64,000 nt of DNA from Takakia lepidozioides (taxonomy: Eukaryota; Plantae; Bryophyta): NCBI GenBank assembly GCA_030704615.1, contig CM060731.1:40548001-40612000 (forward strand). Reading direction: 5' to 3'. Below the pieces are notes generated by a model. That model made no database searches, was not told the origin of the DNA, and saw only the letters and a list, made by a program, of their open reading frames with translations. Below, one piece after another: positions 11,791 to 59,482 of this stretch. Made by a program: the position numbers and the translations under genes. The stretch's first letter is position 1; each line of letters opens with the position of its first letter.

Positions 11791-13064
11791 TTGGGTTGCC
11801 CGGCCGTTGGATTGGTTGTGACAGTAGGAGGCTGGTGCAATTGCAGTAAAGCATGGAAGGATTGGAAGATATAAGTAGACGGCCCTTAATAATGGTGTTG
11901 AGGCTGGGTAGTCCGTGATGGGCATGCTATGTACATGATTGTTACGTCACATACGGGTGGTGTTGTGAATTGTACAGGGGACTCGGACTCAAGGAGTCGA
12001 TTCTGCTGGGAAGAAAAGGATTTTGGTCTGCAGATTGGATAGTCCATTCCGATTGTACATTCCGCCCGTCAAACTTGCATAATAACGTGGAAAGTTTAGG
12101 TTTCAGGCTGTCATGTGTGCTTGATGTGAAATGGTTGAGTGGAATGGTAAAATCTCTGAGAATGTAACAGGCTCGAGACAAACTCGAGAGCTGGACCCTG
12201 CAAGTAGAGGGGGGAATTATGACTTCAACTTTCGCTTAGGTAGAGAGGCTGGGGACAAAGTCAAAAGCTGGACTCGGCAGGTGAAGGGGAGTTTTCTTCT
12301 GGTTTTCTTTCTGATCTCTTGTTGTGCCTGGTGGATACGTAGGATTTTTTTTGTGCGGATACTCTCTTATTGTTATTCATTCAATCTCCGACCCTTCTCT
12401 CTTCTCCCTGTTTGTGGTGTGATTACGGTCAGAACGGCAGAACCGCTCCCAATAGTCGGAGGTGAATACTCACTGTAAGTGGATGTCGTCTAAGTTCTTG
12501 CAGAAAATTCTGAAAGTGGCCAAAATCAATGGGAAATCCAATTCCCTTGAAAGCCATGATGATGCTATTTAATATGCCTGTTTGATTCATTGGTCAACAT
12601 CGTGTTTTTGAGCAGAGTAGGTGAAGTTGAAGTAGAGGGGGTTTGCAGGTATGGGGCCCAAGAGTGCCTCTCTCTTCAGACAAGGAAATCTACAGAGATT
12701 GTTTTTTCCTACATTTCAGACGTGTGTAGTCCATGTCACTCATTGTCTGTTTGATCAAAAAAATTCAGAGATGCTAAACAGACCCCTAGGGGTGGTCATT
12801 CAACCTGACATGAGGCCAGTAGTTGTCACAGATTTCTTTTACAAAAAGCATATCAATAATGAGGCAGCTGCTGCAAAGCTGTGTAGCCAGCCAAATCTGT
12901 TCTTGACCCATATTTCCGCTACCAGTTTCAGAGTTGATCTTGCTATGTTGAATAAGGGCATTCTAGGATAACTTTCTAAATTCTTCTGCTTGACATAGAG
13001 GCTTAGCATCTGACATGAGCTCTCTTGTGTTGACCAATATTCGATGTTGATTTTTCACCACTGT

Positions 13065-13755
13065 ACTCAGGAGATACCTGCCAGCATGCAGAAAGACAGC
13101 TCTATCAGGAAACCATCTGTTGAGTACTTCCCAAAAATCTGGTAGGAAGTACAGACCTGGAACACTGTACTGGTTGCTCCAAAAGATTAGCCAGGGTATG
13201 CGTCTGAGAAGCTTCTGCTCTGCTGGACAGAAGAAGCGAAGGTCTTGTTTTGGGCTGAGATTGGACAGTTTTGTAACTAAGTGCTTTGGTGTGTTGAAGA
13301 TTTTCCCACTATTTGTATCTTCTGTGGTTCCATTTTCTTTCACCAGGTTCAGAGCTCTGTCATAGAACAAGCCATGGTTCTCAGACTGCTTTCGCACAGC
13401 AGCTTCAGGAAAGCCTTGAGGCACCAACCATAAGGAGTCAGGAAATGGTTCACACAGCAGGTGCTGCGGGCTGGCCTCAGGAGTGATCAACATTGCTCGT
13501 CGGTTATCAAAGAATACACAAAAACCGACACCGAGCTGATTTTCCTTTCCATCAAGACTCTTCCATATCACGTACTGGCATCCATCTGGTGGCCTCCCTT
13601 CCAACAGCATCTTTGTCAGATCATGGCCATGCACGCATCTTTGGTGCAAGGCCTCATAGTCTCTCAGAGCAGATAGAAATGGAGTAGATGGGGTGTAGTT
13701 TGTGGCTCGCCAAAAGCAATGTTGCTCATACTTGCTTCTGCAGCTTGGATGGCTC
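13065..13755 (-). pseudogene. Truncated GT37 fucosyltransferase copy
   Basis: Near-identical to 39255-39954 of the intact FUT gene, but missing both ends and carrying small indels near 13500-13545. Confidence 0.9.
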
Positions 13756-13771
13756 AACTGGAAGCACTGGT

Positions 13772-13826
13772 CAACCGCTTTCACCACTTCCAACATGGGG
13801 TCTGTTCTTGTGGGGATTACTGGTGA
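13772..13826 (+). pseudogene. Isolated DYW-domain C-terminus (NRFHHFQHGVCSCGDYW*)
   Basis: Direct translation; near-identical to the last codons of the PPR-DYW gene at 49695-49749. Confidence 0.88.
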
Positions 13827-14289
13827 AGCACGCAGCATCATGCAAGATAAACCAATTCAAGTTCGGTGACCAAGCTGGAAGTTGTTTGAGTTCTCCAGAA
13901 ATACACAACTCAGATTTGGTGGCCAAACCTGATTCTTACAAAGATTATAATGAAAATAGTTGTTAGACTCGTGTTTTCAAAAGATGGAATGGACCCTTTA
14001 AAGAGCACAAGACACATACCGCCTACTACCATAAAGGTATCAAACTAGATTAGAACAAGCAGCAAACTGCAAAAGGCTGTGGCAATGCATACAAACATAT
14101 CCAAAATATACAAACATGACACACACACATACCTTTGTGTGGTTTTCAGAATTCTTCCAACGGAAGCCTAATCTCTTTGTATGGTGGTTTCCTAATGTGG
14201 TTCATATGACAGTGTACAACATGCCACTAGTGTTATAAGTATAACAATTTAAGGATAATAACTTTTGTTGCAAATTCTCAGTAACAACC

Positions 14290-19447: not shown

Positions 19448-19795
19448 ACCATCTACCCATGGAGGTTCCTTGTACCTATCCTTCCACTGTGTTCCACATG
19501 GAATCATAGCTAATCTGGAGCTTGAAATCCGGCCCTCTTGGATGAATCTGGACCCACACTCTATCCCTGCTCCTTCAGCTATCCATGCCTCTGCACAAAT
19601 CATGCATACATCCTTGCCTTGCTGCTAGCAGCTGACAATGACAGCCTAGAATTGTTCCAGCAAACATCCCAACCCTACTTATCAGACTAGTTCCTATGCT
19701 GACTGCGTCTGCTTCCATCAGGCATTCACCTTTTTGCCTCGATTGTTCTACCATTGACTGGGATCGGAAACATATTCATTCCAGAGCTTCTCCTC
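19448..19795 (-). pseudogene. Copy of the OSB-type PDF-motif exon-intron-exon module
   Basis: LWNEYVSDPSQW*NNRGKK|intron|IHPRGPDFKLQ; near-identical to 44640-44980. Confidence 0.7.
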
Positions 19796-20437: not shown

Positions 20438-21015
20438 TACTAGGGTAGCCTGGGCCGTTGGCCCAAGTGTCCAATGTCATCTATGTGCAATCCTCCCTGT
20501 ATGCAAGTGCGTCTCCTATGTCGAGGCCAGAATGCGACCTCTAGGGTAGCATGTGCCCTGGCCCAAGTGTCAAGTGTCATCTAAGTCCAAGTGTAAAATC
20601 TTCTATGTATCCCAATGCGTCTCCTATGTCGCGGGCCAAGTGCAACCTCTAGGATAGCCTGCACCTTTGGCCCATGTGTGAAGAATTGAAAATCTAAGAC
20701 CAAGTGCAATTTCCTATATTGTATCCAATGCGTCTCCTATGAGCCCCATATAAGCCCAAGTACAATCTTCAATTTATGTATCTAAGTGCATCTCCCATGT
20801 AGAGGCCCAAGTGTCCAATGTCATGTAACTTGCCCAAGTGCAATCTCCTATGTATCGAAGTACGTCTCCCATGTCAAGGCCCAATTTATTTTTTCCATTA
20901 ATTTATTGAGTAGTAGTATATCCATTCATTATTGATATATCTCCTCTTATGTCGAGGCCCAAATTCGACCTCTAGGGTAGCCTCTGCCGTTGGTCCAATG
21001 TCATCTAAGTCCAAA
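20438..21015. repeat. Degenerate tandem/satellite-like repeat (about 60-120 bp modules)
   Basis: Recurring motifs GCCCAAGTGTC(C)AA, GCGTCTCCTATGTCG(A/C)GG(G)CC and CGACCTCTAGGGTAGC. Confidence 0.7.
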
Positions 21016-22074
21016 TGCATTTATTTTTCCACAGAGCCTAAGACCACATTACCTTTCCCTTGATATATCTCCCGTCAAGGCTCCAACCATTGTCCCAGAA
21101 ATGCCCACTTTGCCATTTTTGCTATTTTTCATGAAATTAATTTCCAACGACCAAAAGCACTTGGAATTCCACATCTCCCACACCGCAGGTCCAAAAATCA
21201 TGAGACCAAGCCCGTGCACCCCTCCTCGTCGAGGGCTTTCCAACGGTACCAAGCACCATCGCTGGGGCCTGCAGTTTGGGACATCTCAACGTGACAAAAC
21301 AAAACAAAACAAAACAAACAAATTACTAGCTTCCTTCATATATTGATTTTGTTACCCCACTTTCCTGCACAAAAGCAGCGCACATCAGGAAAATGTTAGG
21401 AAAGATTCAACATTTTACTTCGGACAATCTAGGAGAAAACTGCTTGTGAGCTTGCTCATCTTAAAGGCGACGTAACATAAAGTTCTGCCGCATCTGACTT
21501 GCTATATCTAGTCAACAATACGCTTCACAATATCCATGGCCACCAGTTTCAACAAGTATTCTCCAACTGGTTGGGGTTAGAGCCAAAATTTGAAACAAGG
21601 GATCAGACTGGCTACCACTTCAAACGACTGATGCCGCAAGCCCAGGTCGTCTAACTCGTCTAACAAGCACAGTTCAGGGCTTCGAGTACATGAATGACAA
21701 TTCCATACAGCACATTGCTTCAAATGAATGAGACACGAGAGAAGTATAATTTACCCTTGAGTTTCTTTTCGTCCTCCCTGCTAATCTGAACTCTGACAAC
21801 CACATCACACACATCAAAAGTGGGTGGCATAAGCTCATGAGTCTCTCCACCATGCAACAAATTGTAATTATTCTAGTCCCCGAGTGACGAGGAGCATCAT
21901 GATCAAGAGATTGCGGGCCGCCAGTCAACATCATCGGGGCCTAAGCTTCAACAGGTTCCATCTGCATGCAACTACTCTTTTGGGGGAATTTTCTTGCAGC
22001 AACATGTTTTCTAGATGTTGGGTCCACTGTTCCAAACATTCTGCTATGCTTCCAAGAGTTGATCACGTTTCGCA

Positions 22075-23665
22075 TGTCAAGTTATTTTACCACTAGTGTG
22101 AAACTAGCTAGGAAATAGCTAGCTTTTACATATTGACATTTGGGATTGGCCCAAGTGTCAATCCAGGGGTCAAGGCATATTTAGGCCCTGGAGTGGTTAT
22201 CTTCACGGCAAGCGCGGAAGGCTCATCTTTCTCGAGTTGAGCCTCACCGCGCCTAGCTATGGCGCCGTAGTGTGGATTCCCCATGGCGTGGGGTGCACTT
22301 GGCTTGACTTGTATTTGAGTGATGAGGTTATATATGCATGAGTTTATGCTTCAGCTTTGTGAGCTCGCATGAGCTTGTGCTTGTATTCTTCTTCTTTATC
22401 ACTCGAGAAAGATGAGCTCGTATCTGTGAGTGCCAGATATGAGTTAGTTGTAGCACTTGTGGTTTTTGCTTGAGAATGAGAGAAACCAAGTTGTTATGCA
22501 AGGAGCACCGTGGAGCTATTGGTTGTTAGAAGCGGAGGCGATGTGGGTTATGAGGTGGTAGACCTTGGCATTCGATCTTCAGCTTCAGAGATGAAAGCAC
22601 CATGCTGCAGGTAATTCCAGAGCACCTTGATGGTTTCAGATTGTGTACATGCATGAGCAAGCACGATTGGGAAGAGGACCAGTCAAGAGCAGGTTATAGT
22701 GGCTTTGGTGGCAAAGCTGAGAACTGGACTTGGGAATGCGAGCTTTCATTGTGTGAAGGATTGCAAGACCAAGCGAAAGGGCTGATTTGGCTTGGGGCAA
22801 ATCAGTGCACTTTGTGGAGTATGGTGAGATTGGGTTTCAATCTCGAGCTTCAGCATTGAGAGGGCTCTTGTCATGGCAAGAGCAGGGCTGGAACAGGAGC
22901 TAAGAGGTGCGGCAAGGCCATGGAATGTGCATCTAGGGTTTCAGAGCTTGGAAGAAGAGCTCTTGCACCACAAGAGAAGTGTCTTGTGGCTGGAAATGTA
23001 AGCCTTAGGGTTTCAGGAGCTTGGCAAAGGCTGTGGAGTGCTTAGTCTTGTCTTAGAGAGCATCAAGGAGCCAAGGAGCCAAGATAGGGGGCTGATATCT
23101 CTTGTGTGAAGAGGTTGCATGTGTGGAGCATGTATTCAACTCATTGAAGCTTCCATCTTCAAGCTTGGAGGGCAAGCAAGGAAGAGGGAAGGGCTGACTT
23201 CCCTTATGTGAGGGCAATGCATATGTGGAGCATGCTATCAGCCTGGTGAAGGCTTGCACTTTCAGATGTGGGAGTGCAAGAAAGGAAGGAAGGGGTTGGT
23301 TTCCCTGTAGGGCATGTGGAGCATGCTTTCAGCCTGCTGAAGCTTGTATTTTCAGGTTTGTGGGTGCAAGAAATGAAGCAAAGGAGCTGATTCTCTTATG
23401 GTGAGAGTGGGGCATGTGTGGAGCATGCCTTCAACCCATTGAGGCTCTTGTTTTCAAGCTTTAGAGAGCTAGAACGGAAGGTCTAGGGCTGGTTTCCACT
23501 TGGAGTGAAAGAAAAGCACTTGTAGGGCTTATGTGAGTTGGGGTTTCAACTTCAAGCTTGAAGGGAGCGCAACTCTTGAAGCAGCAGGTGTAGGGGGCTG
23601 GAATAGGCTCTAAGATAGATGCTATGGCCAAGGAGAGTGCTTGAATGAGTGCTCACAAGGGCTGG
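22075..23665 (+). repeat. Left long inverted terminal repeat (about 1.59 kb)
   Basis: Reverse complement of 31167-32651; the match ends at ...CACAAGGGCTGG (23665). About 5 mismatches in the outer 160 bp by eye, more divergent inward. Confidence 0.93.
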
Positions 23666-23934
23666 GAACCAGCAGGGCTTGGTTGTTTGCCATTGAGTTT
23701 GGTGGTGTGTTTGAGGAGGCTAAGTGAGAAAGAAGGTTTGGTTTGTGGCAACCACCTCATGGCTTAGGGCTACTATGGTGGTGTGTGGGAGCCAAAAGAG
23801 CAAGAATACCTTGCTGATTTCCTCACAGCCGCCATAGCTCGGTGGAAAGAAGCCTAGAGTCCAAGAGACACAAACCCTAGCTTGGCGTGGCTAAACCCCT
23901 TGGAGAAATGGCTAAACTGCCAGAGCGGCCATGG

Positions 23935-24486
23935 ATGGGGCTGTGACGGGCTGTGCCGGTGGCCTTTTGGGGCTGTGAGGGGCTGTGACAGGCCGTGCCT
24001 GAGGCCTTTGGGGCTGTGAGGGGCTGTGGCGAGCTGTGACGGGCTGTGCGGGGCTGTGACAGGCTGTGCCCAGTGGCCTGTGGGGCTGTGATGGGCTGTG
24101 AGGGGCTGTGCCCATGGCCTTTGGGGCTGTGATGGGCTGTGAGGGGCTGTGACAGGCCGTGCCTGAGGCCTTTGGGGTTGTGAGGGGCTGTGAGGGGCTG
24201 CGCCGGTGGCCTTTAGGGCTGTGCCGGGCTGTGCCGGTGGCCTTCGGGGTCGTGACAGGCTGTGAGGGCCTGTGACAGGCTACACCAGTGGCCTTGGGGG
24301 CTGTGAGGGGCTGTGAGGGGCTGTGTCGGTGGCCTTTTGGGGCCGTGACAGGCTGTGCCCATGGCCTTTAGGGCTGTGATGGGCTGTGAGGGGCTGTGAC
24401 GGGCTGTGAGGGGCTGTGTCAGGCCGTGCCTGAGGCCTGTGGGGCTGTGACGGGCTATGAGGGGCTGTGACAGGCCGTGCCTGAGG
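23935..24486 (+). repeat. G-rich minisatellite of GGGCTGTGA(G/C/T) decamers with higher-order spacers
   Basis: Dozens of GGGCTGTG units interleaved with CCGGTGGCCTTT, CAGGCCGTGCCTGAGGCC and CCCATGGCCTTT. Confidence 0.93.
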
Positions 24487-26065
24487 GCAGAGAGGACCTC
24501 AGATGCAGGGGTCTCTCCCTTCATTTGCTGGCCAACAACGGGCGGATGTGGTGTGCTGGACATGTGGAGGACCCCATGTCAAGAAGGATTGCCCAGAGGG
24601 AGGCAAAGGGCCGGCACATGCACAGCCTGCACAGTTGCAGTGTGGGCATTGTGGCAAGCATGGGCATGGAGAGGCCCAGTGTTATGGTTTGCATCCTAAG
24701 TTGCGCCCAGGCCAGTTCCAAGGGAACAATGGTGGCCGGGGGCGAGGTGGAGCAGCCCAGAGAGGACGAGGTGGCCAGCCACGAGGTGCAGGCCAAGGGC
24801 AAGCTCAACATGGCTAAGGACGCGGAGGTCAAGATATTGATCAAGGCATGGCCAACCGGCTTCAGCAGCTAGAGCAGAGGCTTGCTGCCATGGCTACAGC
24901 TCAGGTGGTACCGGCTCTAAGGCCGGATGGTCCACCTCCTGCTCCTGAGGGAGGAGATATGGGAGGCATGGGATTCATGTATGGAGCAGCACTACCACTA
25001 GTGCAGGTGGAGTCTGCTGCAGCCGTGACTCAAGGAGCAGCACGAGTTCCTGAGCCATGAGGTGCAGAGGTGGAGTTGAATCCACAGCGTGGGGAGGCAA
25101 GCCGTCAGGCTAGGCTTCCTCAGTTATTCACATTGGCGGAAACAGTGTCGACGCCATCCATGGCACCTAGTTCTCGCCCGACTGTTACCGAGGCGGAGGT
25201 TACTATGCCATTGGGGAGAGCTACACGGGTAGCACCACTACCTAGTGTCGCCAAGGCTACGACAGCTAGTGTGCTGCTAGGAGCGGCCACATCTGTGTGT
25301 CAGGCTCCATTGTTCTCAGCTACCATGATTGCGACGCCGGGGGTAAGACCAGCTGAGGTGTGCAGGCTGGCAGCTACACTCTGTGAGAAATGGGAGGTTA
25401 CTTCATCTTCTGCGGAGATACTAGGAGGTGTAGTGCCGGAGGGATCCTCGGATTTGAGGATCAAGACTGCCACGGCGGCGCCATGGCAAGCTGCAGCTGC
25501 CAGGTTGATGGAGCTGCCAGCTAGGCCAGCCATTGAGCGCGCCATGGTGACACCTGGAGTTGTCATGTTAGACAACCAGGATGGCATTTTCTGTTTGAGT
25601 GGACCGGCAGGGAAGAAGTACCGGCCACTGCGGGTCTTGTTGGACTCAGGAGCTCAGCCACTGATGCTGGGCAGAGCTGCTATTGCAGGCTTGGGTCTCA
25701 CGGAGGCGGATATGGAGCCTTGTCTTTTCCAGATACAGACGTGTCTGGGAGGATCGGAGCAACCTCGGGGCATGACACGGCATGAGTTGTCTATCAGACT
25801 ACGGCCGGATCACCCTACAGATGGCTCAGTGATGCGAGCCAAGGCCATTGTGACAGACGCGGTCTCATACGATGTCCTGGTTGGTGGGGCAGTGTTGTAC
25901 CCCATGGGCTTCACCCTGGATTTTTGGGAGGAGTCACCTTCCTATAGGCATGCATGGCAGTCAGGGGAGGGCCGGCATGTGCAGCTCCCTGTGACGTTCA
26001 TAGGAGGAGTTGCGGTTGCCCAGCGAGGCAAGATGCCGACACTAGCAGGCAGTGAGTTGGCCTAG
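24485..26065 (+). pseudogene. Retroelement Gag C-terminus (two zinc knuckles) and aspartic protease
   Basis: CWTCGGPHVKKDC and CGHCGKHGHGEAQC knuckles followed by an RGG-rich tract. Protease motif VLLDSGAQPLMLG and later YDVLVG. In-frame TGA at 25058; Gag N-terminus missing. Confidence 0.8.
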
Positions 26066-26329
26066 AGAGTTGCTTGAGGGCAACGCTCATTCAAAGGATG
26101 TACCACCTCCGGGAGAGCAGGATGATATGTATGGTATGGCGGAGTTGCCTACCATGGTTGCTCAGACTCCATTGTGGGGCACGAGCAAGGATTTGCAGCG
26201 GGATGCTGATCGACGGGTGCAACAAGCCTGGGTGGAGGCTTTTGTACCGTCAGGAGAGGAGGAGAGTGCGGGGATTGCACCAGGACCACCTCAATTGTCT
26301 CCATTGGACACCACACCTATTGTGTGGCA

Positions 26330-27300
26330 ATATCCGGATGAAGGCATTTGTCTTCTGGACTTGTTTGGCGGGATCAGCACCGTATTGGCTGCTGTGTTAC
26401 AGGCAGGTATACGAGTTTGGCGTTACCTGTATGTGGAGAGGGATGAGACTGCACGACGCGTTTCACTTCGTCATGTTGCTTAGTTGGTGCAGCGGTACCC
26501 TGAGTTGTTGTCGGTGTCTGCAATTCGTGGATATCAGCAGGCCTTGCCAGCAGACATTTCGTTGCTGGGGGCGCAGGATTTGGAGCGGGTTGGCTCCATT
26601 GATCTGGTAGTGGCAGGTTGGCCCTACCAAGGGCATTCATCAGCCGGGCATGGCAATGGATTGCGAGACTCGAGGTCGGGTCTGTTTTGGGAGATGGTGC
26701 GGGTTTTGCGCCACTTGCAGCTTCATCAAGTTGTATCTCCAGCATACATCTTGGAGAATGTGCCACTGAAGGGCGATTCTCGGGCCAGGGTGATGGCCAG
26801 TGTGCATCAAGTCCGGTCGTGGCTTGGGTCAGCAGTGTTGCTAGATGCAGCTACAGTGGGGTCACGGGCTCATCGTCCACGGCTATGGTGGACTAACTTG
26901 ATGCCACCCGCACTGCTCAAGCGTGCATTTGATGGGGTGCAGCGGCCAGCACATCTCACAGTGGATAACATTCTGGACACAGGGAGGCAGTCTCAGCGTG
27001 TGAGACACGATGACCGTTCGCCTTTGGCAGTGGTCAACAAGGTGGGTCAACCACGAGCAGCATTACCTACACTGCTCAGCTTCCCAGGATCGTATGCTTT
27101 CCGAGATAGTGGACCTGGCCTCCTATGGGATGCTCAGTTGCAGCAGTTAGTGGAGCCTAATGCTGAGGAGCGTGAGCGGGCAATGGATTTTACCATTGGT
27201 ACCACGGCGGTGTCGTCTCTTTCTGAGGCATCACGTCGTCAAGTGTTGGGGCAAGCAATGGATCTCAATTGCTTGACTTGGATTATCAGCTTGGCTCTGG
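26330..27300 (+). pseudogene. C5 DNA (cytosine-5) methyltransferase domain inside the retroelement polyprotein
   Basis: Motif I LDLFGGIS, II YVERD, IV VAGWP[Y]QGHS (catalytic Cys codon is TAC at 26625), VI YILENV, VIII AHRPRLWWTN, IX-X ERERAMDF...RRQVLGQAMD. In-frame TAG at 26481. Confidence 0.9.
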
Positions 27301-27753
27301 CTAAGCAACGCAGAGTGCGGAGTACACTTCCCTCAATGGTCTCTCTGCCTACCGAGACGGTATAGGCAGTGAGTGGGGGCGAGCATGTGAGGACCACGGG
27401 GTGCATGCATCCATGGCACACGTGGGAGGTGCTCGAGGTTCAGAGAGAGTTGGCAGCCAAGGCGGCTGTGATGGATGAGGTTGGGGATTCTTCTCGGGTT
27501 GAGGAGGTCCTCAAGGATGAGATGATGGGGCTAGGATGAGGCCTTGTCATTGACTGAGCAGGCAAGGAGTACTGCTCAAGAGGTTGCAACATAGCAACCA
27601 CTGGACGCGTCCTCTACCTCTAAGCCCACTGGACTTAAGGTTGCAGTTACGGAGGACAATTGGGAGCCTAACATTGGATCCATTTTCACCGGAGGAGAGA
27701 GACGACGTACACGGCGGTTCCTAAGGGTTTACAGGAATTGCTTTACCTTCAGT

Positions 27754-29343
27754 TTGAAGGACTTGGGAGCACTGAAGGGTCAAGAGATCCGTATTGAGTT
27801 GGCCACTGACACGCCAATCTTTCGGAGACCCTATAGATATAGTGACATGGAGAGGTCTTTGATTCAGATGAGGACTCAAGATCTCTGGGAGGCAGGTTTG
27901 GTGGAGCTCTCTGGTGGAGAGTATGCTTCAGCCACAGTGATGCCAGCCAAGAAGGATGTCTATGGCAATTGGACGGAGAGACGTATGTGCGGTGATTACC
28001 GGCCTGTAAATCGTCAGACCAAGTCCGATAAGTATGCCATGCCAACACCAGAGGAGATCTTTGATGCCATCGGGCATGCTAAGGCCTTTAGCACTTTGGA
28101 TTTACGATCCGGATATCACCAGTTGCCAATCAAGGAGGCGGACAAGCAGAAGACGACATTCTGGGGGATCAATGAGCACGACAAGGATTGCCTATATCAG
28201 TGGCGGTTCTTACCATTTGGGCTTAAGAATGCTCCTGCAAAGTTTCAGAGAGTCATGGATAGGATTCTAGCAGGGGTGGATTTTGCTCGGTGCTACATAG
28301 ATGACATCATCATCTTTAGTGTTACGATGGAGGAGCATGAGAGACACCTTCAGGTGGTATTGGAGCGCTTGAGAGCGCACGGATTGAAGTTGCATCCGGG
28401 GAAGTGCAAGTTTTTCCACAACCAGATTGAGTATCTGGGTCACATGATATATCCTGGAGGATTGGGGGTACAGCAGACTAAGGTAGAGGCCATTGCACAA
28501 ATTCCACGCCCCACGGATGTGAGCCGAGTTCGAGCTTTCATGGGGTTGGCAAACTATTATAGACGGTTTGTCAAGGGATTTAGTACCATTGCAAAGGCTC
28601 TAACCAAGCTGACCAAGGTGGACCAGGAGTGGCAGTGGGAAGATGAGCAGGAACGAACTTTTCAAGAGCTCAAGGCGAGGTTGACCTCGGCGCCTATCCT
28701 GAGACGACCTATTAGGGGGCGTCCCTTTCAGCTGCATACGGATTGGAGCATGCTGGGGCTTGGAGCGGTGCTCACACAGGTGGATGATGAGGGAAAAGAG
28801 TTCGTAGTGGCTTATGCTAGCCGCTCGAACAACGCTGCAGAGGCTAAGTACAGCTCATATGAGGGAGAGTGCTTAGCTGCAGTGTGGGCCGTGGCACACT
28901 TCAGGTGCTATCTATACGGCAATCTTTTCACCCTTGTCACGGATCACCAGCCACTCAAGTGGTTGATGGAGTCATACAAGCTTACGGGGAAGCTTGCACG
29001 GTGGGCACTCATACTCCAGGAGTATGACTTTCAGGTTGTGCATCGACCAGGTTTGGTCAATCGGGATGCGGATGGATTGAGTCGCAATCCATGCATGAGC
29101 CAGCAGGATGACACAGGAGCTCGGTGGCATGGTGAGACGGACGAGGAGATGGTGCCGGGATGGCACGCATTTGCATTTTTGTGTATCTTGGCATCGGGAG
29201 GTCAGGTTGGACCTACAACAGGGATGACTGTAGACGGAGTGTCTGAGGACCCTGAGGCTAGTGATGAGCCAGGTGGTGCCAGAGATATGAGGATTTTGCT
29301 GTGTTGGACTACCTCCGCACGGGAGATACGGCAGCCACTGTGA
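27754..29343 (+). pseudogene. Ty3/Gypsy reverse transcriptase and RNase H
   Basis: RMCGDYRPVN, FSTLDLRSGYHQ, LPFGLKNAP, YIDD (28294), YLGH, FMGLANYYRRFV. RNase H HTDWS..GLGAVL, YSSYEGECLAAVWA, TDHQPL, NRDADGLSR. Confidence 0.95.
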
Positions 29344-29414
29344 CTGCCAGGGAGAGGGATCGGATCCTGCAACGAGCCAAGAGGTTCAAGTGGGAGGGGA
29401 TACACCTACTTTGA

Positions 29415-30725
29415 GTGTGGGAGGATGGTCGGGTGAGGATTGTGCCTCACCCCACACAGCGTGCACGGTTAGTGCGGCATGCCCATGAGGAGTTGGGGCA
29501 TTTTGGAGTGCGACGCACTCACAGTTTACTGCAGGGGCAGTATTGGTGGCGTGGTATACATACAAAGGTGCAACAGTTCGTGGCTAGGTGCATGGTGTGT
29601 GACAGGGTGCGTGCTTCATTCAACGCCCCTACACCACAGTTGCATCATTTACCAATCATGGGATTGGGCTACAGGTGGAGTCTTGACTTCGCAGGACCGT
29701 TGCCACTGACTATGCGCCACCACAGATATGTGTTGGTGATGGTGGAGCACTTCTCCAAGTGGATTGAGTTGGTTCCATTGCCTGACAAGTCTAGTGAGGG
29801 GGCTGCGTATGCATTCTTGGATCTTGTGCTTAGCCGATTTGGTGCTCCAGCTGAGGTACTCACGGACCAAGGGAGAGAGTTCTTGGGGGAGTTTCAGGCT
29901 TTGTGTGATAAAGCCTTGATAGACCACCGCACCACTTCTCGGGATCATCCTGAGGCCGATGGCTTAGCAGAGAGAGTTGTTCAGACGGTGAAGAGGGGTT
30001 TGCGCAAGTATGGCTTGCAGAAGAGACACCTAGGAGATTGGGATCTTCAGGTTCCTTGGTTAGCCATGGGCTACAGGTTCAACAAACAAGCATCACTTGC
30101 CTCCTTCTCACCATATTTCTTTCTCTTTGGCCGAGAGCCGGATTTGCCTGCAGCCATTTGTAGGGACACTACTCAAGTCTTTAACCTTGACGATCCGGAT
30201 GTGTGGGTACGTGCATGTGATCAGCGTGCAGAGTTGTTCAAGAAAGTCATGCCCATGACTTTTGAGAACCTTGCCATTGCACAGCATCGTGATACGTTGA
30301 GGTATGCCACTATACGTGGTGGAGGATATCGTCCTGGGGTTCGGAGGGTTACCCCTGGTGACTATGTTTATTTGCAGCAGACTGCTCGTACGACTCTGGA
30401 TGTTACTGCAAGGCGTGTTATTCTGAGGGTTCGAGAGGTGTTGCCCTCAGGGGTCCTGATCTTAGAAGGTCGGGATGGCATGACTTGGAAGGACCATGTG
30501 CGTAATTGTGTGCCATGTCACCTTCCCAATGTCGATGGCAGAGTTGACCCAAACTTGGCAGTGGTACTTGCAGGTTTGAGGTGCATGCTCTGTGGGTCTG
30601 CCAAAGGGGCAGCCACCATGCTGGTGTGTGATCGATGCTCAAGGGGTTGGCATATGGGATGCTTGACACCACCTCTTGAGAAGGTTCCTGACGGAGATTG
30701 GTTGTGTCCACACTGCTTGGGATAG
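29415..30725 (+). pseudogene. DDE integrase with C-terminal PHD finger
   Basis: HHCC (HEELGHFG...CMVC), D (WSLDFAGP), D (LTDQGREF), E (GLAERVVQT). C4HC3 PHD CMLC...CDRC...HMGC...CPHC at 30582-30716. Confidence 0.93.
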
Positions 30726-31166
30726 TGGCAGTGGACATGACTGGAGGCAGCTAACAAGACATGGGAGGCCAAGCTCATATGAGTCAATACATGAGATCCC
30801 AAGCTCAAGTTCACAGGTTGCAAGACGGCGACTAACGATGGGGCAACTCTTGCACCCGGCCTCTTGATCTATCGAGTTTGAGTGTAGTAGGGATAGTGGT
30901 GGAGGACTTAGTGAGGCTATGGTCACTATCACATCTTGTGGCTACCTGGACTAGTGGACTAGTGACTGCCATAGTGGGCAGCATAGTGGCAGCCTAGTGA
31001 CTGACTAGTTGTAGCCTAGTGGTTGGACTAGTGGCTGGACTAGTGGTGGACTAGTGGTATACTAGTGTGTGGTGTGCACATGTGTTGTGTGGTTTTGGAC
31101 AGCGATGTAGTTGTGTAGCGATATGTATGCGCACGACACGCATCATGGAGAAGCGAAATAGGTCTA

Positions 31167-32651
31167 CCAGCCCTTGTGAGCACTCATTCAAGCGTTTCCC
31201 TTGGCCATAGCATCTGTCTTAAAGCATATTCCAGCCCCCTATACCTGCCACTTCAAGAGCCATGCTCTATCTAGACTTGAGGTTGAAACCCCAACTCAAA
31301 ACACGCTCTACAAGTGTTGGACTGTCACGTAAGAGCAGATCAGCCCCTTACCTTCTCTTCTAGTCCTCTAAAGCTTGAAAACAAAAGCCCAATGGACTGA
31401 AGGCATGCTCCACACATGCCCCACTCTCACCACCAGAGAATCAGCCCCTTTGCTTTCTTTCTTGCACCCACCAACCTGAAAATACACGCTTCAGCGGGCT
31501 GGAAGCATGCTCCACACATGCCCTACATGGAAACCAGCCCCTTCCTTCCTTTCTTGGTTGCCCTTCAAGCTTGAAGATGGAAGCTTCAATGAGCTGAATA
31601 CATGCTCCACACATGCAACCTCTTCACACAAGAGGTATCAGCCCCCTATCTTGGCTCCTTAGCTCCTTGATGCTCTCTAAGACAAGACTAAGCACTCCAC
31701 AACCCTTGCCAAGCTCTTGAAACCCTAAGGCTTACATTTCCAGCCACAAGACACTCCTCTTGTGGTGCAAGAGCTCTTCTTCCAAGCTCTGAAACCCTAG
31801 GTGCACATTCCATGGCCTTGCCGCACCTCTTAGCTCATGTTCCAGCCCTGCTCTTGCCATGACAAGAGCCCTCTCAATGCTGAAGCTCGAGATTGAAACC
31901 CAATCTCAGCATACTCCACAAAGTGCACTGATTTGCCCCAAGCCAAATCAGCCCTTTCGCTTGGTCTTGCAATCCTTCACACAATGAAAGCTCGCATTCC
32001 CAAGTCCAGTTCTCAGCTTTGCCACCAAAGCCACTATAACCTGCTCTTGACTGGTCCTCTTCCCAATCGTGCTTGCTCATGCATGTACACAATTTGAAAC
32101 CATCAAGGTGCTCTGGAATTACCTGCAGCATTGTGCTTGAAGCTGAAGATCGAATGCCAAGGTCTACCACCTCGTAATCCACATCGCCTCCGCTTCTAAC
32201 AACCAAGAGCTCCACGGTGCTCCTTGCATAACAACCTGGTTTCTCTCATTCTCAAGCAAAAACCACAAAGTGCTACAACTAACTCATATCTGGCACTCAT
32301 AGATACGAGCTCATCTTTCTCGAGTGATAAAGAAAAAGAATACAAGCACAAGCTCATGCGAGCTCACAAAGTTGAAGCATAAACTCATGCATATATAACC
32401 TCATCACTCAAATACAAGTCAAGCCAAGTGCACCCCACGCCATGGGGAATCCACACTACGGCGCCATAGCTAGGCGCGGTGAGGCTCAACTCGAGAAAGA
32501 TGAGCCTCCCGCGCTTGCCGTGAAGATAACCACTCCAGGGCCTAAATCTGCCTTGACCCCTGGATTGACACTTGGGCCAATCTCAAATGTCATTATGTAA
32601 AAGCTAGCTATTTTCTAGCTAGTTTCACACTAGTGGTAAAATAACTTGACA
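31167..32651 (-). repeat. Right long inverted terminal repeat (about 1.49 kb)
   Basis: Reverse complement of 22075-23665, lacking one of the internal roughly 95 bp modules. Confidence 0.93.
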
Positions 32652-33149
32652 CCAGCTACCACGCTTCCCGCACAACAAACTCTCAATAGCAGCTTTTACG
32701 CTTCCACGCAAAACATCTTCTCAAGTACAGCAGCTTCCACGCTTCCCTCTATGTTTGTATATTTTCGTTACCAGAATCTATCAAAAAGTTGATAGATCTC
32801 CTAAACTCACTTTGACTTCGACTCACTGCCACTCTTCCAAGAACAACCTTAGGCAACCACAGACGTTCGTCCCTGTCTGGAGAATCACAACATTTCGGCT
32901 TACTCATTGTATGGGCCAACCTTTTGTGCTTTGTTCTCTCCGGATGGTTTATTGGATAGATTAGATACAATGAAAGTTATCAATTTTTGAATATAAAGTC
33001 ACAAAGCAAAATCGAAATGCATCTCATCTTCAATTTCAGACAAATTCTTGCTTATATCGTTATAGATTCCATCCAATGTCTTAAAAATGCAAAATAAACC
33101 TAACACATAAAAACATAAACGAATATTGTTAAACAAGATATAACGCAAA

Positions 33150-34501
33150 AGCATTGGTGATGCAATTCCCCATATATCTTCTTATCATCGAAATGTTATA
33201 ACGGGAGCATTTGGGATTCTTTTGGTACGCAATGTCGGTGACATATGCGATAGTAAAACACCACATGAAGATGAGTAAGATCGTTGCATTGTGTTAGCAT
33301 AGGTGTAGTTTAGGTGTCACCTCGATGGCATCAACTTTTGTAAGTGATGAATAATGTCAAGAGGTAGAATATTTGAAATTGGTTTGTTGGAATCGTATAT
33401 AATGCATTGGTATTCAAAATCACGATGATGTGTAAGTGTCAATACCTAATGATGATTTCCATTGACAAATAAATGTTGTAGGCATTTACTAGTATAATTA
33501 GAGCGTCTATATAGACTTGCATAAGAACATTGTTGTTCATATTAACCTTGTACTTGGAGTTGGTTGTGATAAAGGATTTGCATGCCAGGCTACACCCATC
33601 TATTCATCGCTTAGCCATTGTGTTGGATCTAAGAGGATTATTTCGTGTTCTTGGGTGCAAAAAAACACTATTCCAATATATGAGATTTTGTAGAATATGA
33701 GTTTGAGGTTTGTAAGTAGGTTTTAATCATTCATTGTGGTGGATCCGTTTTATGGACCATTGGATTTGGTTGCAGCTTTTATGATAGGGGATTCCTTAGG
33801 TACACTATTATTTTTATTGGATGCTATTGGTTGGAATTCTTGTTCAAGGGGTGGTTTTGTTGTTGTATATTTGTTGCTTTCAGTGCTGAATTTGGAACTT
33901 TTAACATCTTCAACTTGAATGTTGCAAAGTATGATTAGCCGTTCTAACTTACGTAGGCGGGAAAGTGTAACATATATTATGTAGGCTAAGTGGTTTTCCA
34001 TCTGGTGGTTTTTGGAGGTCGATAATGAGGTGGTTGTATGTTTGGCCCTGGCCTTTATAGTCTGTTAGGCAAAATGTGGGTATTAATGGGAGTTGGCATC
34101 GACTGATTTTGAAGCTTTTGTTGTGTTTGAATTCATTGGTAGGGTGTACGTATAACATGATTCTCGTAGTCGGATGGACGGGCACCACATTTTTGGGTAG
34201 TCCTTCTAGATTGATTTTATTCAATAAAGGATGTGTCATGATGAATTCAGAAAAATCTATGAGAACTTGTGTGTATGGTGCATTTCTTTGCCATCCACAT
34301 TGTCAAGCAATAGTTCATGTATCTTTCATACGTCATGACAACTAGCATGTAGCCCAGTGGTAAATGGTCACATACCACATTGGATGAGGTTGTGGGTTCA
34401 AACCACGGTTTGGTATGTCATGAAGGTGTCCACCTTTCAGCTGGAAGGTAGTAGCCCTTGTGGTGAAGACGTGCCATAAGTTTCGCTCCCTTCCGGAGGC
34501 G

Positions 34502-36690: not shown

Positions 36691-38546
36691 ATTTGCCAAA
36701 CGAAGCCCGACTTCTGACCCTCAGCAATCTACAAAGAACGAGGAATACAACCGCCTTGCAAGGCTCAATGGTCTATTGCCAAGGATGCAATAGCATCTGC
36801 ATTTCCACAGATGCAATCGAGTTAAAGCCCTAAGGGTGCACCAAATCCGGCAGTTAGAAGCCAAAGAGTTACTGTAATTGAGCAAAAGGGGCTACGAAAA
36901 TCCAGCTGTGGGACTTCGATTCCAGTACCTACAAACTGGGTAAGCAGTTTTGTAAATTGATCTCCTGTGCTGGATGAAAATGGAGAATGAATATCGATCA
37001 ATATGTCAATATCATACTGCAACTTTCACCAGAAAATCACGACCCCCAGTAAGCTTGCAGGGGCCCTTGTTCAACCTTTCTCAGATCTAAAACTTACTTT
37101 TATGCCTCCTTTTCACTGGCTTACTCTTGCTCTTAAATAGTCGCTTAGGTAGAGAGGCTCGGGACAAAGGCAAAAGCTGGACTCCGCAGGTGCCGGGGAG
37201 TTTTCTTCTCGTTTTCTTTCTGATTTCTTGTTGTGCCTGGTGGAAACTTTGGATTTTTTTTGTGCGGATACCCTCTTATTGTTATTCATTCAATCTCCGA
37301 CACTTCTCTCTTCTCCCTGTTTGTGGTGTGGTTACGGTCAGAACCGCTCCCAATGTTTGGAGGTGCATACTCACTATAAGTGGATGTTGTCTGAGTTCTT
37401 GCAGAAAATCCTGAAAGTGGCCAAAATCAATGGGAATCCAATTCCCTTGAAAGCCATGTTGATGCTATTTAGCATGCCTGTTTGATTCATTGGTCAACAT
37501 CGTGTGTTTGAGCAGAGTAGGTGAAGTTGAAGTAGAGGGGGTTTGCAGGTATGGGGCCCAAGAGTACCTCTCTCTTCAGACAAGGAAATCTACAGAGATT
37601 GTTTTTTCCTACATTTCAGACGTGTGTAGTCCATGTCACTCATTGTCTGTTTGATCAAAAAAATTCAGAGATGATAAACAGACGCCTAGGGGTGGTCATT
37701 CAACCTGACATGAGGCCAGTAGTTGTCACAGATTTCTTTTACAAAAAGCATATCAATAATGAGGCAGCTGCTGAAAAGCTGTTTAGCCAACCAAATCTGT
37801 TCTTGACCCATATTTCCGCTACCGGTTTCAGAGTTGATCTTGCTATGTTGAATAAGGGCATTCTAGGATAACTTTCTAAATGCTTCTGCTTGACATAGAG
37901 GCTTAGCATCTGACATGAGCTCTCTTGTATTGACCAATATTCGATGTTGATTTTTCACCACTGTACTTGGTGAAGTCTGGTTGTAACATTTCTCCTTGCA
38001 TGACATGCATTTGAAAATGATTTCTGTGTCTACTCTCCTCATTTATTGCTGGGGATATGAGAGGTTTGCTGAAGCACTGAGGTGCGTGATTTTTTATTCT
38101 AGTCTGTGGACAATTGGGAAACTTGCAATATAAGGGGTACTCTTGGACCACTTTGGGAGTTGCATGTCATCCATGCCGGAATGTATGTCTTTGTTCAGAT
38201 GACCGTTCACCACTCTTCGATCTGGAAATAGTCTGGAATTCAATTCGTCCAGCAATCATCAGATCACAGTGCAATGCACTGCTGGGTCCAAGACAAGGAA
38301 GAGATGATAGTACCATAAGCAAATTGCTGCACATCGGAAGAGGAAGCCATGTTGGGTGTGTGCAAGTGGTGCATTGCAACCTTCACACTCGATCCCAACA
38401 CTCCTAAATCTTCCCATGACTGACTAAGACATGCCACATCTCTATGGACTTGTGAACTACGGAGAGAATATGCAGGATCCGAATTAAGTTCATTGGATTC
38501 CATGCTCCAAGTTCGATGGGAGACCCTCAAGTACACCATTGATGTA

Positions 38547-40570
38547 CTAGTTCTCATACATGCCAATGCCCCATTGATGCAGACAATGCCTAACTTCAGG
38601 AACAGTGGTGTCAACATTGCCAACCCCTATACCAGGGGGGTCCATTGGGCAAGGCATCTCCTCTGGGTGGTCCATGAAGCAGGGCCCTGGCAGATTTGTG
38701 CGGCTGCACAAGGGGTCAGGCAGCTTCTCCTCATTGAGTCCATATTGCAGAAACACAGTGGGTGTGATGCCTGCCAGCCCATGTGCCACATGCCCAAATG
38801 TGGAACGAGGTGTAGAGATCACGTCATCCATAAAGCTGAGCAACCACATGTCTGCCAACACTTTCTTTTCATGATCTACCTTCCCAGTCTGCTGTTTCCC
38901 CTCAAAACTGGGGCTAACTACTTTGACCTGACTGCCTTCCACAGTCGGGTATTTGATATACATCTCTGTCAAATTTTCATGGTATTCCCGTCTAAGGGCA
39001 GTTACCAAGACAGCAACCTTGTCTGGAGGGAGGTCAGCTTTTTCCAAATCTTTTGTGGCTGGCAGTGCAAGGGATTCTGAAGTGGTAAGATTGGGAAGGA
39101 GGCCTTTAATTGTGGCACACTTGAATATGTGCATGCTAACCATGGGTAAGTAGTCGTTCCTCCATGTGCGCACTTGGATTCCCAGTCGTCTATCTGCCAC
39201 CGCCAGGTATGCATCATAAAAGCGAGTTATGCGCCCCCATATTTCATTGTTGGGACTCAGGAGATACCTGCCAGCATGCAGAAAGACAGCTCTATCTGGA
39301 AACAATCTGTTGAGTGCTTCCCGAAAATCTGGTAGGAAGTACAGACCTGGAACACTGTACTGGTTGCTCCAAAAGAGCAGCCAGGGTATGCGGCTGAGAA
39401 GCTTCTGCTCTGCTGGACAGAAGAAGCGAAGGTCTTGTTTTGGGCTGAGATTGGACAGTTTTGTAACCAGGTGCTTTGGTGTGTTGAAGATCTTCCCACC
39501 ATTTGTGTCTTCTGTGGTTCCATTTTCTTTCAACAGGTTCAGAGCTCTGTCATAGAACAAGCCATGGATCTCAGACTGCTCCCGCACAGCAGCTTCAGGA
39601 AAGCCTTGAGGCACCAACCATGAGGAGTCAGGAAATGGTTCACACAGCAGGTGCTGCAGGCTGGCCTCAGGAGTGATCAACAATGCTCGTTTGGTTATCA
39701 AAGAGTACACAAAAGCCGACACCAGAGAGATGAGCTGATTTCCCTTTCCATCAAGATTCTTCCATACCACATACTGGCATCCATCTGGTGCCCTCCCTTC
39801 CAACAGCATCTTTGTCAGATCATGGCCATGCACACATCTTTGGTGCAAGGCCTCATAGTCTCTCAGAGCAGCCAGAAATGGAGTAGATGGGGTGTAGTTT
39901 GAGGCTCGCCAAAAGCAATGTTGCTCATACTTGCTTCTGCAGCTTGGATGGCTCTTACTTGCGAGGGACTTGTCATGTGGGTGATACTGGTGCGGGGCTG
40001 TTATCACTTTGCCTGGGAATCCAACAGTCGAACAGTCTGCACAACCCAAGGCTACCGCAAAGTCAGATTGCTTCCTCAATTGCTCAAGGAGGAATTTGGC
40101 TAAATCTATACTCTCTCTGGGCGCGGGCTCTATGGCCACAAGGCTAAGGCAAACAACGTCTTGTGAGTACATTCTCTCCCTGTCACACACACACACACAC
40201 ATACACACACAATGTCACCCAACCGGTCTTCCTTGGAGTCTGGAGACGAGACACAGAATCAGCGACAACCATTTGTCCCATGCCATGCTCAGGATTCTTG
40301 AAGGTAGACTGCTTTGGATTTCTAAACAGTTGAATTCTGGGAATTCACATGAAACAGGAAAAGGTGAGATGGTCATCAACTACCAATGTCGTTGGGGCCG
40401 ATGAGGCGGCGTCTGTTAGGAGTGGCAAGGGGCACCGCCAGGCTCTGATGCATGACGTCAATCAGGCTAAGGAAGGCCACAAACAGGCCTAGCAGGCCGA
40501 GGAAGAAAAACCGTGCGCACCAACTGGTCGGTCTGCATTCGACTTCCTTCTTCACCCGCCCAGAAACCAT
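38547..40570 (-). CDS. FUT: GT37 xyloglucan/galactoside alpha-1,2-fucosyltransferase (exons 40570-40384, 40012-38547)
   Basis: Type II membrane anchor in exon 1. SCRSKY, LRDYEALHQRC, GKGNQLISLVSAFVYSLIT, LLCEPFPDSSW, FFCPAEQ, RLGIQVR, LADMWLLSFMD..STPRSTFGHVAHGLAG. Phase-consistent GT-AG intron. Confidence 0.92.
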
Positions 40571-44155: not shown

Positions 44156-45545
44156 CTGGACCCACACTCTATCCCTGCTCCTTCAGCTATCCATGCCTCT
44201 GCACAAATCATGCATTCATCCTTGCCTTGCTGCTAGTAGCTGACAATGACAGCCTAGATTTGTTCTAGGAAACACCCAATCACACGAGTTCCTATGCTGA
44301 ATTGCGTCTGCTACTCTCTGTAATCTAACAGGCATTCGACTTTGTGCCTCGGTTCTCCCACCATTGACTGGGGTCAGAAAAGTATTCATTCCACAGCTTC
44401 TCCTCATCTCTGTTACCTGTTTTGGGATACTTTCCTGTTGTCACATTGGCAGTATCATGTCAAAGTCACTCCAAACTATCAAAGATTCACTCAACCAGCT
44501 AACTTGCAGAATTCAACATGAAAATTTAGGGCTGATTCTGATAAGAGGGAAAAACAGGGTGAAATGTGTTGATGAAGGTGCCTTGATCAGCAGTGCCTGA
44601 TTTTATCAATTGTGCCGCCGCTGCTGCGGCTTCCAGTTGACCATCTACCCATGCGGGTTTCTTGTAGCTACCCTTCCACAGGGAATCGTAGGTAATCTGG
44701 AGCTTGAAATACGGCCCTCTTGGATGAATCTGGACCCACACTCTATCCCTGCTCCTTCAGCTATCCATGCCTCTGCACAAATCATGCATACATCCTTGCC
44801 TTGCTGCTAGCAGCTGACAATGACAGCCTAGAATTGTTCCCAGCAAACACCCCAACCCTACTTATCACACTAGTTCCTATGCTGACTTGCGTCTGCTTCC
44901 AACAGGCATTCACCTTTTTGCCTCGATTGTTCCACCATTGACTAGGGTCGGAAACGTATTCATTCCAGAGCTTCTCCTCGTCTCTGTTATCTGTTTTCCG
45001 ATACTTTCCTGTTGCCACATTGGCAGTAACATGTCAAAAACACTCCAAAACCACCATAGATCCACAAACGAGCTAACTTGCAGAATTCAACATGAAAATT
45101 TAGGGACAACTCTGATAACAAGGGAAAACAGGGTGAAATGTGTTGAAAAAGGTGCCTTCATTAGCAGTGCCTTGTTCTATCAATTGTGCGGCTGCCGCTG
45201 CTGTTCCTTGACCTTGTGTCATGACCCATGGAGGATTTGACCGACCATCAACCCAAAAGGACCTCTTGTGTGTGCTGGTTGTGTCTGTAGTAGGTAATGT
45301 CGGATTGACCACCACGGTGCAGCTGAGCAGGCTAAAACCAAGCTGACTCTCCCAAGAACCTTGTAAACATCAGGAAGAATACCAAATGATGGTACCAACA
45401 GGAGCCAAGAGCCCACATTTGCAGGATGGACATTCTTCACATCGTACATTAAGAAAAGCCACACCTTGCGATTGCGGTTGTCCCACCATCGTGCAAATAG
45501 CTGTGAGAGCTCCTGCGGTGTACTCATAATCTGCAAATGTCTCCA
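44156..45545 (-). pseudogene. Three tandem exon-intron modules encoding OSB-type PDF motifs
   Basis: [11 protein letters not shown]|..SFWVDGRSNPPWV, then EEKLWNEYVSDPSQWWNNRGKK|IHPRGPYFKLQITYDSLWKGSYKKPAWVDGQL. The third module is truncated at its acceptor site. Resembles the PDF motif of organellar ssDNA-binding proteins. Confidence 0.65.
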
Positions 45546-45973: not shown

Positions 45974-46755
45974 ACTGTCATGTAAGTTGTCGCTTGGTAG
46001 CAGCTTCCCGAATTATGCTTCGTCGGACAATCTGTGGAGAGTAGCAGAATGTAGTCTCTGAGAAACGTCTCCAAAATTTTAGATTTTTTCCAGTGTCACT
46101 GCAGTAGTTTTAAGCTCTGGCCCATTGCCAGGGGGGGCTTGGAAGGCCTTACGGACGTTCGGAGGGGAGAATTGCAGTCTGGGTAGTGGGGTAATGCAGA
46201 CTTATAGTAGTCCTGCAACTCACCTAGTCTGCCTACAGGTCATTTGTTGTTTGTTGTGTGAAAGAGAACCCTCACAATCTTTAGTTGGCCTACTGTTAGG
46301 GTGCCTTGGACAACAGATTATAGGTGTTTTGTGGGTAGGAGACATTAATTTCACGAGGGATCTCAAGGTTGGATATTTTCTTTCAAGTCCTTTGGAGGGA
46401 GAGAATGTACTCCTATGATGTTGGCTGCCCTTTGGAGGGAGGGAGGGCGAGAGAGAAAGATCCAGTTGTGGATAAATGAACATTCATGTCTTGTTATTCT
46501 GAGAAGAAGAGAACTTAAATGAGTGGGATTTAGATCTATATCTGTGATTATTTTCTCCATTGAGCGTCCTTGTGGATTGAAATTGTCAAACTCTGCTTTG
46601 CTCACTCTGAGCTGAAATTCTGAGAAAACAAAGACAACAAGATGCATTGAAAAACTTTGTTGCAAATTGTCTTCCTTCCTTTCTCCTCAGCAAATCAGCA
46701 TATGAACTAGTGTGTGAGAAGTAGGGTTGTGGTGTTTGCTAGATAATTTTTTAGC

Positions 46756-59300: not shown

Positions 59301-59482
59301 ACCTGATGGATGGATCTGATGGTTTGCTTCCTGGCGCTGGGTCTCAATTTGGAAGAGATTTGAGGAGGGACATTGGCAGTACACTGCCAGGTGACCCGAT
59401 GGGAGGATCTGATCTTTCACTTCCAGGAACACGTCATCACTATGGAAGAGATCTGGGAACACACCCTCGAGACGATTTCTGA
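56321..59482 (+). CDS. SKIP22: F-box protein of SKIP22/FBXO7 type (Ubl - PI31/FP - F-box - Pro/Gly-rich tail); exons 56321-56587, about 57371-58177, 58499-59482
   Basis: Ubl LKVRVR..FRLSLNKKDEI..LSSFGVINGDLLF; FP domain LVLAVHAVMLETGF; LWQEVKDNLSLPLL; F-box LLPTELKIKILECLP; IGGDYDRFP. Confidence 0.85.

Follow-up and report, generated by a model that had tools for sequence, protein, structure and literature searches.

Two opposed copies of a split-repeat Gypsy retrotransposon carrying a DNMT3-like methyltransferase in Takakia lepidozioides, and a possible integrase cut inside the long terminal repeat

Introduction

Retrotransposons of the DIRS, PAT and Ngaro type encode a tyrosine recombinase and carry split direct repeats in the order A-coding-B-A-B, with an internal copy of the junction. 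Ginger and GingerRoot elements combine a Gypsy-related integrase with TG-type ends, lack a reverse transcriptase (RT), and are bounded by true terminal inverted repeats (TIRs) with one pair of target-site duplications (TSDs). In Tf1, the 5' end of the element's own RNA primes the minus strand, and HIV-1 integrase reportedly cleaves palindromic junctions between two long terminal repeats (LTRs). Here we analyze 64,000 nucleotides (nt) of the Takakia lepidozioides genome (assembly GCA_030704615.1, contig CM060731.1, positions 40,548,001 to 40,612,000), referred to as the window. Positions 22075-32651 of the window contain a Gypsy RT and integrase cassette between inverted ends. An original prediction, made from the sequence letters, offered three readings of this arrangement: (a) a new element architecture joining RT, integrase and long TIRs, (b) a foldback DNA transposon that captured a retroelement core, or (c) two related copies fused back to back.

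The closest described element is KnitGypsy-Dnmt3 from Klebsormidium nitens, which has Gypsy domains, a Dnmt3 domain within Pol, and repeats described as 'the same as that of a DIRS retrotransposon' (PMC5890265). There is also a brief reference to 'streptophytes (Gypsy-DNMT3)' in a 2026 preprint (10.64898/2026.05.21.726589). Tf1/Sushi and the plant Tcn1 Ty3/Gypsy elements, present in non-seed plants, are described as having paired direct LTRs, a chromodomain, and predicted self-priming (PMC6317226). The Chlamydomonas element Gypsy-7a_cRei contains a PHD finger in Gag-Pol and two near-complete LTRs (10.1101/2022.06.16.496473), and integrase cleavage of palindromic LTR-LTR junctions has a precedent in foamy virus (PMC1180852). 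Judged by its sequence, the family in the window is of the KnitGypsy-Dnmt3 type, here in land plants.

Results

Two target-site duplications at the locus

Alignment bears out the inverted 1.5-kb arms of the original prediction: positions 22075-23665 and 31167-32651 are reverse complements, with outer ends TGTCAAG and CTTGACA. Identity is 95-100% in each 100-nt bin across 22075-23184, with 25 substitutions, making the outer 1.1 kb about 98% identical. The inner 390 nt show 69-92% identity and a 99-nt gap in the right arm; over their whole length, 83 substitutions and several gaps separate the two sequences. A same-strand search of the locus also agreed with the prediction in revealing no direct LTR pair. 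Direct repeats shared by the 5' and 3' regions do not exceed about 24 nt, and the best short same-strand matches are a reflection of inverted repeats within the arms.

The locus had been described as having no TSD, yet two pairs are found at boundaries that had not been tried. CGCA at 22071-22074 recurs at 31139-31142 and encloses copy 1 (22075-31138, + strand), a degenerate Gypsy-DNMT3-PHD element with ends TGTCA...GACA and the form A-core-B, where A and B denote the repeats defined below. CCAG at 31167-31170 recurs as the outer TSD at 32652-32655 and encloses copy 2 (31171-32651, - strand). This 1.48-kb 5' fragment of a sibling copy forms the right arm and comprises repeat A (32651-32325), the primer site, and the leader. 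The CCAG at 31167-31170 lies at the broken end of copy 2, where the element itself has an identical 4-mer, and the similarity between the arms ends exactly at this 4-mer. A 24-nt spacer (31143-31166), probably host DNA, separates the two inner TSD halves. Both pairs match at four of four positions, at independently set boundaries, with a chance of about 1/256 each.

In the left arm, A and leader form the ordinary 5' end of copy 1; the right arm is the corresponding end of the opposed sibling. We regard it as highly probable that a single high-copy Gypsy family has left two copies here in opposite directions, each with its own 4-bp repeat pair. Option (c) was correct in kind, but the copies appear to have inserted separately, 24 nt from each other and with a TSD pair each, rather than to form one fused element. 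An inverted-end element architecture is refuted at this locus. The part of copy 2 beyond the leader was lost either by a microhomology deletion, from the internal 4-mer to the far TSD, or through one-ended insertion.

Host contigs define repeats A and B

Contigs from four of the 16 listed sequencing runs (X1, X4, X5 and X7) were mapped to positions 21000-34000. Among the joints listed, for which no strand is given, 31138 is connected to 22075 across a 2-nt spacer, GC or AC, in runs X1 and X4, and 22399-22401 is connected to 30954 in runs X1, X4 and X5. These joints identify 22075-22401 as repeat A and 30954-31138 as repeat B, and they indicate that other copies carry direct split repeats of the form A-core-B(-GC-A-B). 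Loose ends at 31138 occur in 58 X1 contigs with mixed flanks, and one X7 contig starts exactly at 22075 and tracks the left arm for 1488 nt. Summed contig depth in X1, which is not a copy number, is 1.8e5-1.3e6 over the element versus 50-98 over unique flanks and shows that the family is very abundant in the host.

Repeat plan of the relatives

Relatives were collected by a metagenome search with the integrase frame (the best 80 of 140 loci); many are the same locus repeated, so that the rows lack independence. Their split direct repeats are A, of about 337 nt (TGTCA...TCA), which opens the element, and B, of 115 nt (ending in GCACGACA), which lies 3' of the PHD finger and sometimes precedes a second A and B. 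Eleven relatives are complete at both ends, seven of them A-core-B and four A-core-B-A-B. A single B is present at 22 of 35 distinct 3' ends and a pair at the other 13. The spacer at the B|A junction measures 2 nt in all 20 rows (GC in 11, AC in seven, AT in two), the commonest form giving the palindrome GACA-GC-TGTC. Directly before B, a short G-rich (purine) tract is present in 50 of 51 rows, although copy 1 itself lacks it.

The 4-bp flanks of the relatives match at four of four positions in seven of 11 loci, at three of four in two, and less well in two; this count leaves out L044, which has no terminal B, and so falls from 12 rows to 11. Thirteen loci have 7 kb or more of upstream sequence and 1.5 kb or more downstream, and 11 of them show no inverted repeat of at least 150 nt around the integrase. 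The other two contain short inverted pairs of 69-76% identity: the pair in L038 lies outside the element, and that in L073 is not shown to be an element end. The arms of the window gave no blastn match among the best 80 of 140 relative loci. The original prediction had named relatives with ordinary direct LTRs as grounds for giving it up. Other members come close to this, combining direct repeats and 4-bp TSDs with a primer site and a purine tract; the repeats are split, however, and not arranged as ordinary paired LTRs.

Rearranged ends occur within the family. At L068:3244-3878 (the same locus as L070), B-GC-A is followed by primer-site sequence and then by a reversed 178-nt 5' part of A that ends exactly at A's start. 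This arrangement resembles a fold-back product of the plus strand, and it shows that the family has a real inverted end of short length. At L069:3185-3417, nearly all of the 5' A has given way to 233 nt of reversed 3'-end sequence comprising the purine tract and B.

Self-priming and a proposed integration mechanism

The 5' copy of repeat A (22075-22401, +; 327 nt, TG...CA) is set by the contig joints and has ends identical to those of the longer A in relatives. Immediately after it, where the original prediction saw no primer binding site, lies a self-priming-type site at 22401-22417 (+). All 17 of its nucleotides pair with 22221-22237 (+) within A, the predicted RNA 5' end for self-priming, and none of 200 shuffles paired as well. 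Pairing is 17/17 in both window copies and in L006/L007, with letters differing at most positions, a pattern indicating that it is maintained by compensatory changes. A 200-nt segment of the window containing the primer site folds at z -8.3. The 5' leader (22402-23928, +) follows, and most of the left arm consists of its first 1.26 kb; the X7 contig covers 22075-23562.

These features suggest the following scheme. A two-B master copy would be transcribed from the middle of A1 into A2, and the RNA 5' end would pair with the site after A and prime the minus strand, as in Tf1. The plus strand would begin at the purine tract before B, so that the real LTR of the complementary DNA (cDNA) would be B-GC-A. 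Because LTR-type reverse transcription from this primer site and purine tract would yield cDNA with B-GC-A at both ends, and inserted copies start at A and finish at B, the two halves of the internal palindrome, an integrase cut at that position is the simplest account. Integrase would cut after CA on both strands of GACA-GC-TGTC, and insertion would generate the 4-bp duplication. If both junctions were cut, or the sole junction of a one-LTR circle, the product would be A-core-B, a dead end without a 3' A. If one junction were cut after the cDNA ends had been joined, the product would be A-core-B-GC-A-B. The fold-back in L068/L070 stops exactly at A's start, which looks like what a junction cut would leave.

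That the family integrates by an internal cut inside the LTR seems to us somewhat better than an even bet. With the same slight preference, we propose that the integrase attachment site has moved from the LTR ends to mid-LTR in a widespread bryophyte Gypsy lineage with self-priming, B-GC-A cDNA, cutting at an internal palindrome, most copies lacking an LTR pair, and its own DNMT3 and PHD finger. Taken as a whole, a locus of two opposed copies from a family that likely integrates by cutting an intra-LTR palindrome is a reading we hold with good confidence.

Several observations weigh against this reading. We saw neither the 31138-31171 joint nor position 32651 spanned by a contig or long read, which leaves some chance of misassembly; the 24-nt spacer, which holds TSD halves matching both outer flanks, argues against it. 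Runs X1 and X4 represent one sample, possibly the source of the assembly itself, and the repeated loci among the relatives make the counted rows interdependent. Short inverted ends do exist in the family (L068/L070, L069), and exact primer pairing exceeded shuffles in only eight of 18 relative rows. The permuted form A-B-GC-A-core-B is present in none of 14 true 5' ends, a count reduced from 17 by leaving out the L024 group, L027/L030 and L042, which are 3' copies of A. Since symmetric cutting of a two-LTR circle predicts permuted copies, the proposed cutting step needs an unexplained asymmetry. Furthermore, 17 of 21 rows have a flush A|B joint, whereas end-joining often leaves more ragged ones, and one-B copies could alternatively come from B1-B2 recombination. 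Finally, the mechanism is deduced from genomic sequence.

Alternative explanations

The strongest alternative, which we consider possible though doubtful, retains the two-copy layout and assumes PAT/Ngaro-like replication. In this scenario, the B|A junction would be the template from which the ends are rebuilt by strand transfers, and later B1-B2 recombination would produce the one-B copies. The repeat plan fits DIRS-type split repeats, as stated for KnitGypsy-Dnmt3 (PMC5890265, Fig. 4 legend), and the absence of permuted copies and the mostly flush A|B joints would be accounted for. However, it does not account for the primer site that follows A or the purine tract that precedes B, two features that jointly mark B-GC-A as the LTR being copied, nor for the strict 2-nt palindromic spacer and the L068 fold-back ending at A's start. 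The 22 one-B ends versus 13 two-B ends would also require very frequent recombination between 115-nt repeats.

The remaining alternatives concern the locus itself. An assembly artefact, in which the right arm arose from a collapsed high-copy repeat, would be in keeping with the extreme depth of the element relative to its flanks in X1 and with an inner joint unspanned among the pieces listed. We consider it very improbable: 83 substitutions and several gaps distinguish one arm from the other, and a misjoin would not create TSD halves in the spacer that match both outer flanks. Slightly less credible still is option (a), a new element with RT and a DDE integrase within 1.5-kb TIRs that moves as one unit. 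The TG...CA ends, the high identity of the outer 1.1 kb, and the short inverted ends made by the family (178 nt of reversed A in L068/L070, a 233-nt reversed B piece in L069) speak for it. In contrast, the outer ends share no TSD (CGCA versus CCAG) and the inner halves match the outer flanks separately, the arm starts with the ordinary 5' repeat A, host contigs place A after B in direct orientation, and 11 of the 13 well-flanked relatives lack the inverted repeat. Least credible of all is option (b), a foldback or Ginger-like DNA transposon that captured a retroelement core. The TGT...ACA ends and tandem subrepeats of the arms resemble Ginger or foldback ends. Against it, the arm is composed of sequence native to the retroelement (repeat A, primer site and leader), the outer ends lack a TSD, and the B-GC-A joints, with A directly oriented after B, largely refute it.

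Coding content of copy 1 and its relatives

Downstream of the leader, a GGGCTGTGA-type tandem array (23929-24490, +) belongs to the family leader and adjoins the Gag deletion; it has high contig depth and loose ends at 24484, upstream of which other copies diverge from copy 1 in the contigs. Gag is truncated, as originally noted: the remnant (24485-24814, +) retains two zinc knuckles and has lost the capsid part, relatives have longer Gag frames, and tblastx across 22075-24479 revealed no Gag N-terminus. The protease frame (25061-26062, +) has no Pfam match, and its DSG motif near 25643 was read by eye; relatives P0138-P0140 and P0146 do match aspartic-protease Pfam families.

The C5 DNA methyltransferase and the PHD finger had been missed in the original prediction. 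The methyltransferase is DNMT3-like (26046-27362, +; PF00145, E 1.5e-9), lies between protease and RT, and has DNMT3A as its best PDB match (E 6e-5). It is broken by a stop at 26481, and its catalytic motif reads PY, versus Cys at this position in 34 of 37 relative rows. RT and RNase H follow (27595-29340, +), with a YIDD motif and a Ty3-like RT whose best PDB match is Ty3 RT (E 1e-72). The integrase (29415-30722, +) comprises H2C2 and a DDE core, with a C-terminal PHD finger (PF00628, E 1.5e-10) at its 3' side; in copy 1, a frameshift near 29288 together with a stop at 29412 severs its 5' part. Repeat B (30954-31138, +) ends in the same terminal sequence as in relatives, and the purine tract and the first bases of B have apparently been deleted here. 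Copy 1 is dead, with stops at 24815, 25058, 26481, 27363 and 29412 and frameshifts near 26050, 27532 and 29288.

The methyltransferase is present in 31 of the 36 relative loci with sufficient upstream DNA, and fused DNMT-RT-IN-PHD proteins occur among the relatives. The nearest named relatives are found in liverworts and mosses, with Calypogeia, Marchantia, Riccia and Sphagnum represented. Integrase-PHD proteins of K. nitens are 53-54% identical to that of the window; no named K. nitens protein appears among the 51 DNMT matches of 514-2000 amino acids. L034 and L036 are more distant members that have a long intact Gag frame and keep the DNMT-RT-IN-PHD order. Marchantia hypothetical proteins P0123-P0135, P0141, P0145, P0148 and P0152 show 58-73% identity to the element's DNMT. 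Some are labelled DNA (cytosine-5)-methyltransferase, and the whole set may be retrotransposon copies counted as host genes.

Surroundings in the window

A further very high-copy repeat, identified by contig depth, occupies 21000-21330 and ends about 750 nt left of copy 1, beside a 108-nt tandem array at 20440-21017. A dispersed repeat family occurs in both orientations at 19448-19795, 44156-45213 and 46690-46961; it includes a 574-nt tandem duplication, and 44593-44890 and 46690-46961 form an inverted pair of 71% identity. A xyloglucan fucosyltransferase region is duplicated at 12232-13755 and 37141-39954 with about 95% identity, the copy at 12966-13856 being shorter. An intact 1000-codon PPR-E-DYW frame with 303-nt repeats (46747-49749, +) is typical of an organelle RNA-editing factor. 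The PPR-DYW and xyloglucan fucosyltransferase genes mark the host as a land plant, and the element's nearest named relatives make a bryophyte likely. The window also contains a sacsin-domain frame (1899-2741, -) and adjoining PI31-like and F-box frames (57347-59482, +). No tRNA gene was found within the 64 kb.

Discussion

The apparent inverted-end element is an accident of two neighboring insertions and has little significance in itself; the lead is the mechanism of the family. If its integrase cuts inside the LTR, the family would represent a replication route between LTR retrotransposons and the split-repeat DIRS elements. Copies without an LTR pair would probably escape programs that search for such pairs, which would explain the labels of hypothetical protein or methyltransferase given to relatives in Marchantia, Calypogeia and Sphagnum. 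The results also show that land plants have a DNMT3 carried by a retrotransposon, and counts of methyltransferase genes could be raised by it. The methyltransferase and PHD finger of the family might serve self-methylation or chromatin targeting.

Our literature search found no account of the lineage in bryophytes, its TSDs, self-priming or junction palindrome; subscription journals, Repbase and figures were not covered, making this weak evidence. In the literature searched, we likewise did not find the compensated self-priming site, the purine tract before B, or integrase-type ends meeting at GACA-GC-TGTC. Three supplementary files of the KnitGypsy-Dnmt3 report (PMC5890265) contain no mention of KnitGypsy, TSD, PHD or integrase, and its Fig. 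4c may show features counted as new here. Two other candidates were considered. Troyka was rejected, as its account gives CG...CG LTR ends, a 3-bp TSD and animal hosts versus TG...CA, 4 bp and a plant (PMC12440569). The other was Selgy/Phygy with a PHD finger; neither 'PHD' as a whole word nor 'methyltransferase' turned up in the searchable part of the REXdb paper.

Compared with Ty3/Gypsy elements in general, the family has the domain order PR-RT-RH-IN, TG...CA termini and a 4-bp TSD. Paired direct LTRs at both termini are lacking, the relatives being A-core-B or A-core-B-A-B. With Ginger and GingerRoot it shares a Gypsy-related integrase and TG-type ends, but it possesses an RT, and no single TSD pair surrounds the inverted termini (CGCA versus CCAG). 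Gypsy-7a_cRei is likewise a Gypsy element with a PHD finger, but has no methyltransferase among its listed domains. Like Tf1/Sushi and Tcn1, the family lacks a tRNA primer site, has predicted self-priming and a Ty3-like RT, and occurs in non-seed plants; those elements have paired LTRs and a chromodomain, whereas here the repeats are split and the added domains are a PHD finger and a methyltransferase.

The A-coding-B-A-B plan of split repeats with an internal junction copy is shared with DIRS, PAT and Ngaro. Unlike these, the family has a DDE (rve) integrase, TG...CA ends and 4-bp TSDs, and a scan of seven element frames found no tyrosine recombinase family. The cut proposed here, by integrase at an internal palindromic CA...TG junction, recalls foamy virus and HIV-1, but there the junction forms between LTR ends, whereas here it would be a fixed part inside the LTR. 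Both the Dnmt3-like domain in Pol and the DIRS-like split direct repeats of KnitGypsy-Dnmt3 are found in the window family. The difference is that the present host is a land plant and that the PHD finger, TSDs, one-B forms, self-priming and junction palindrome described here were not found in the searched text of that report.

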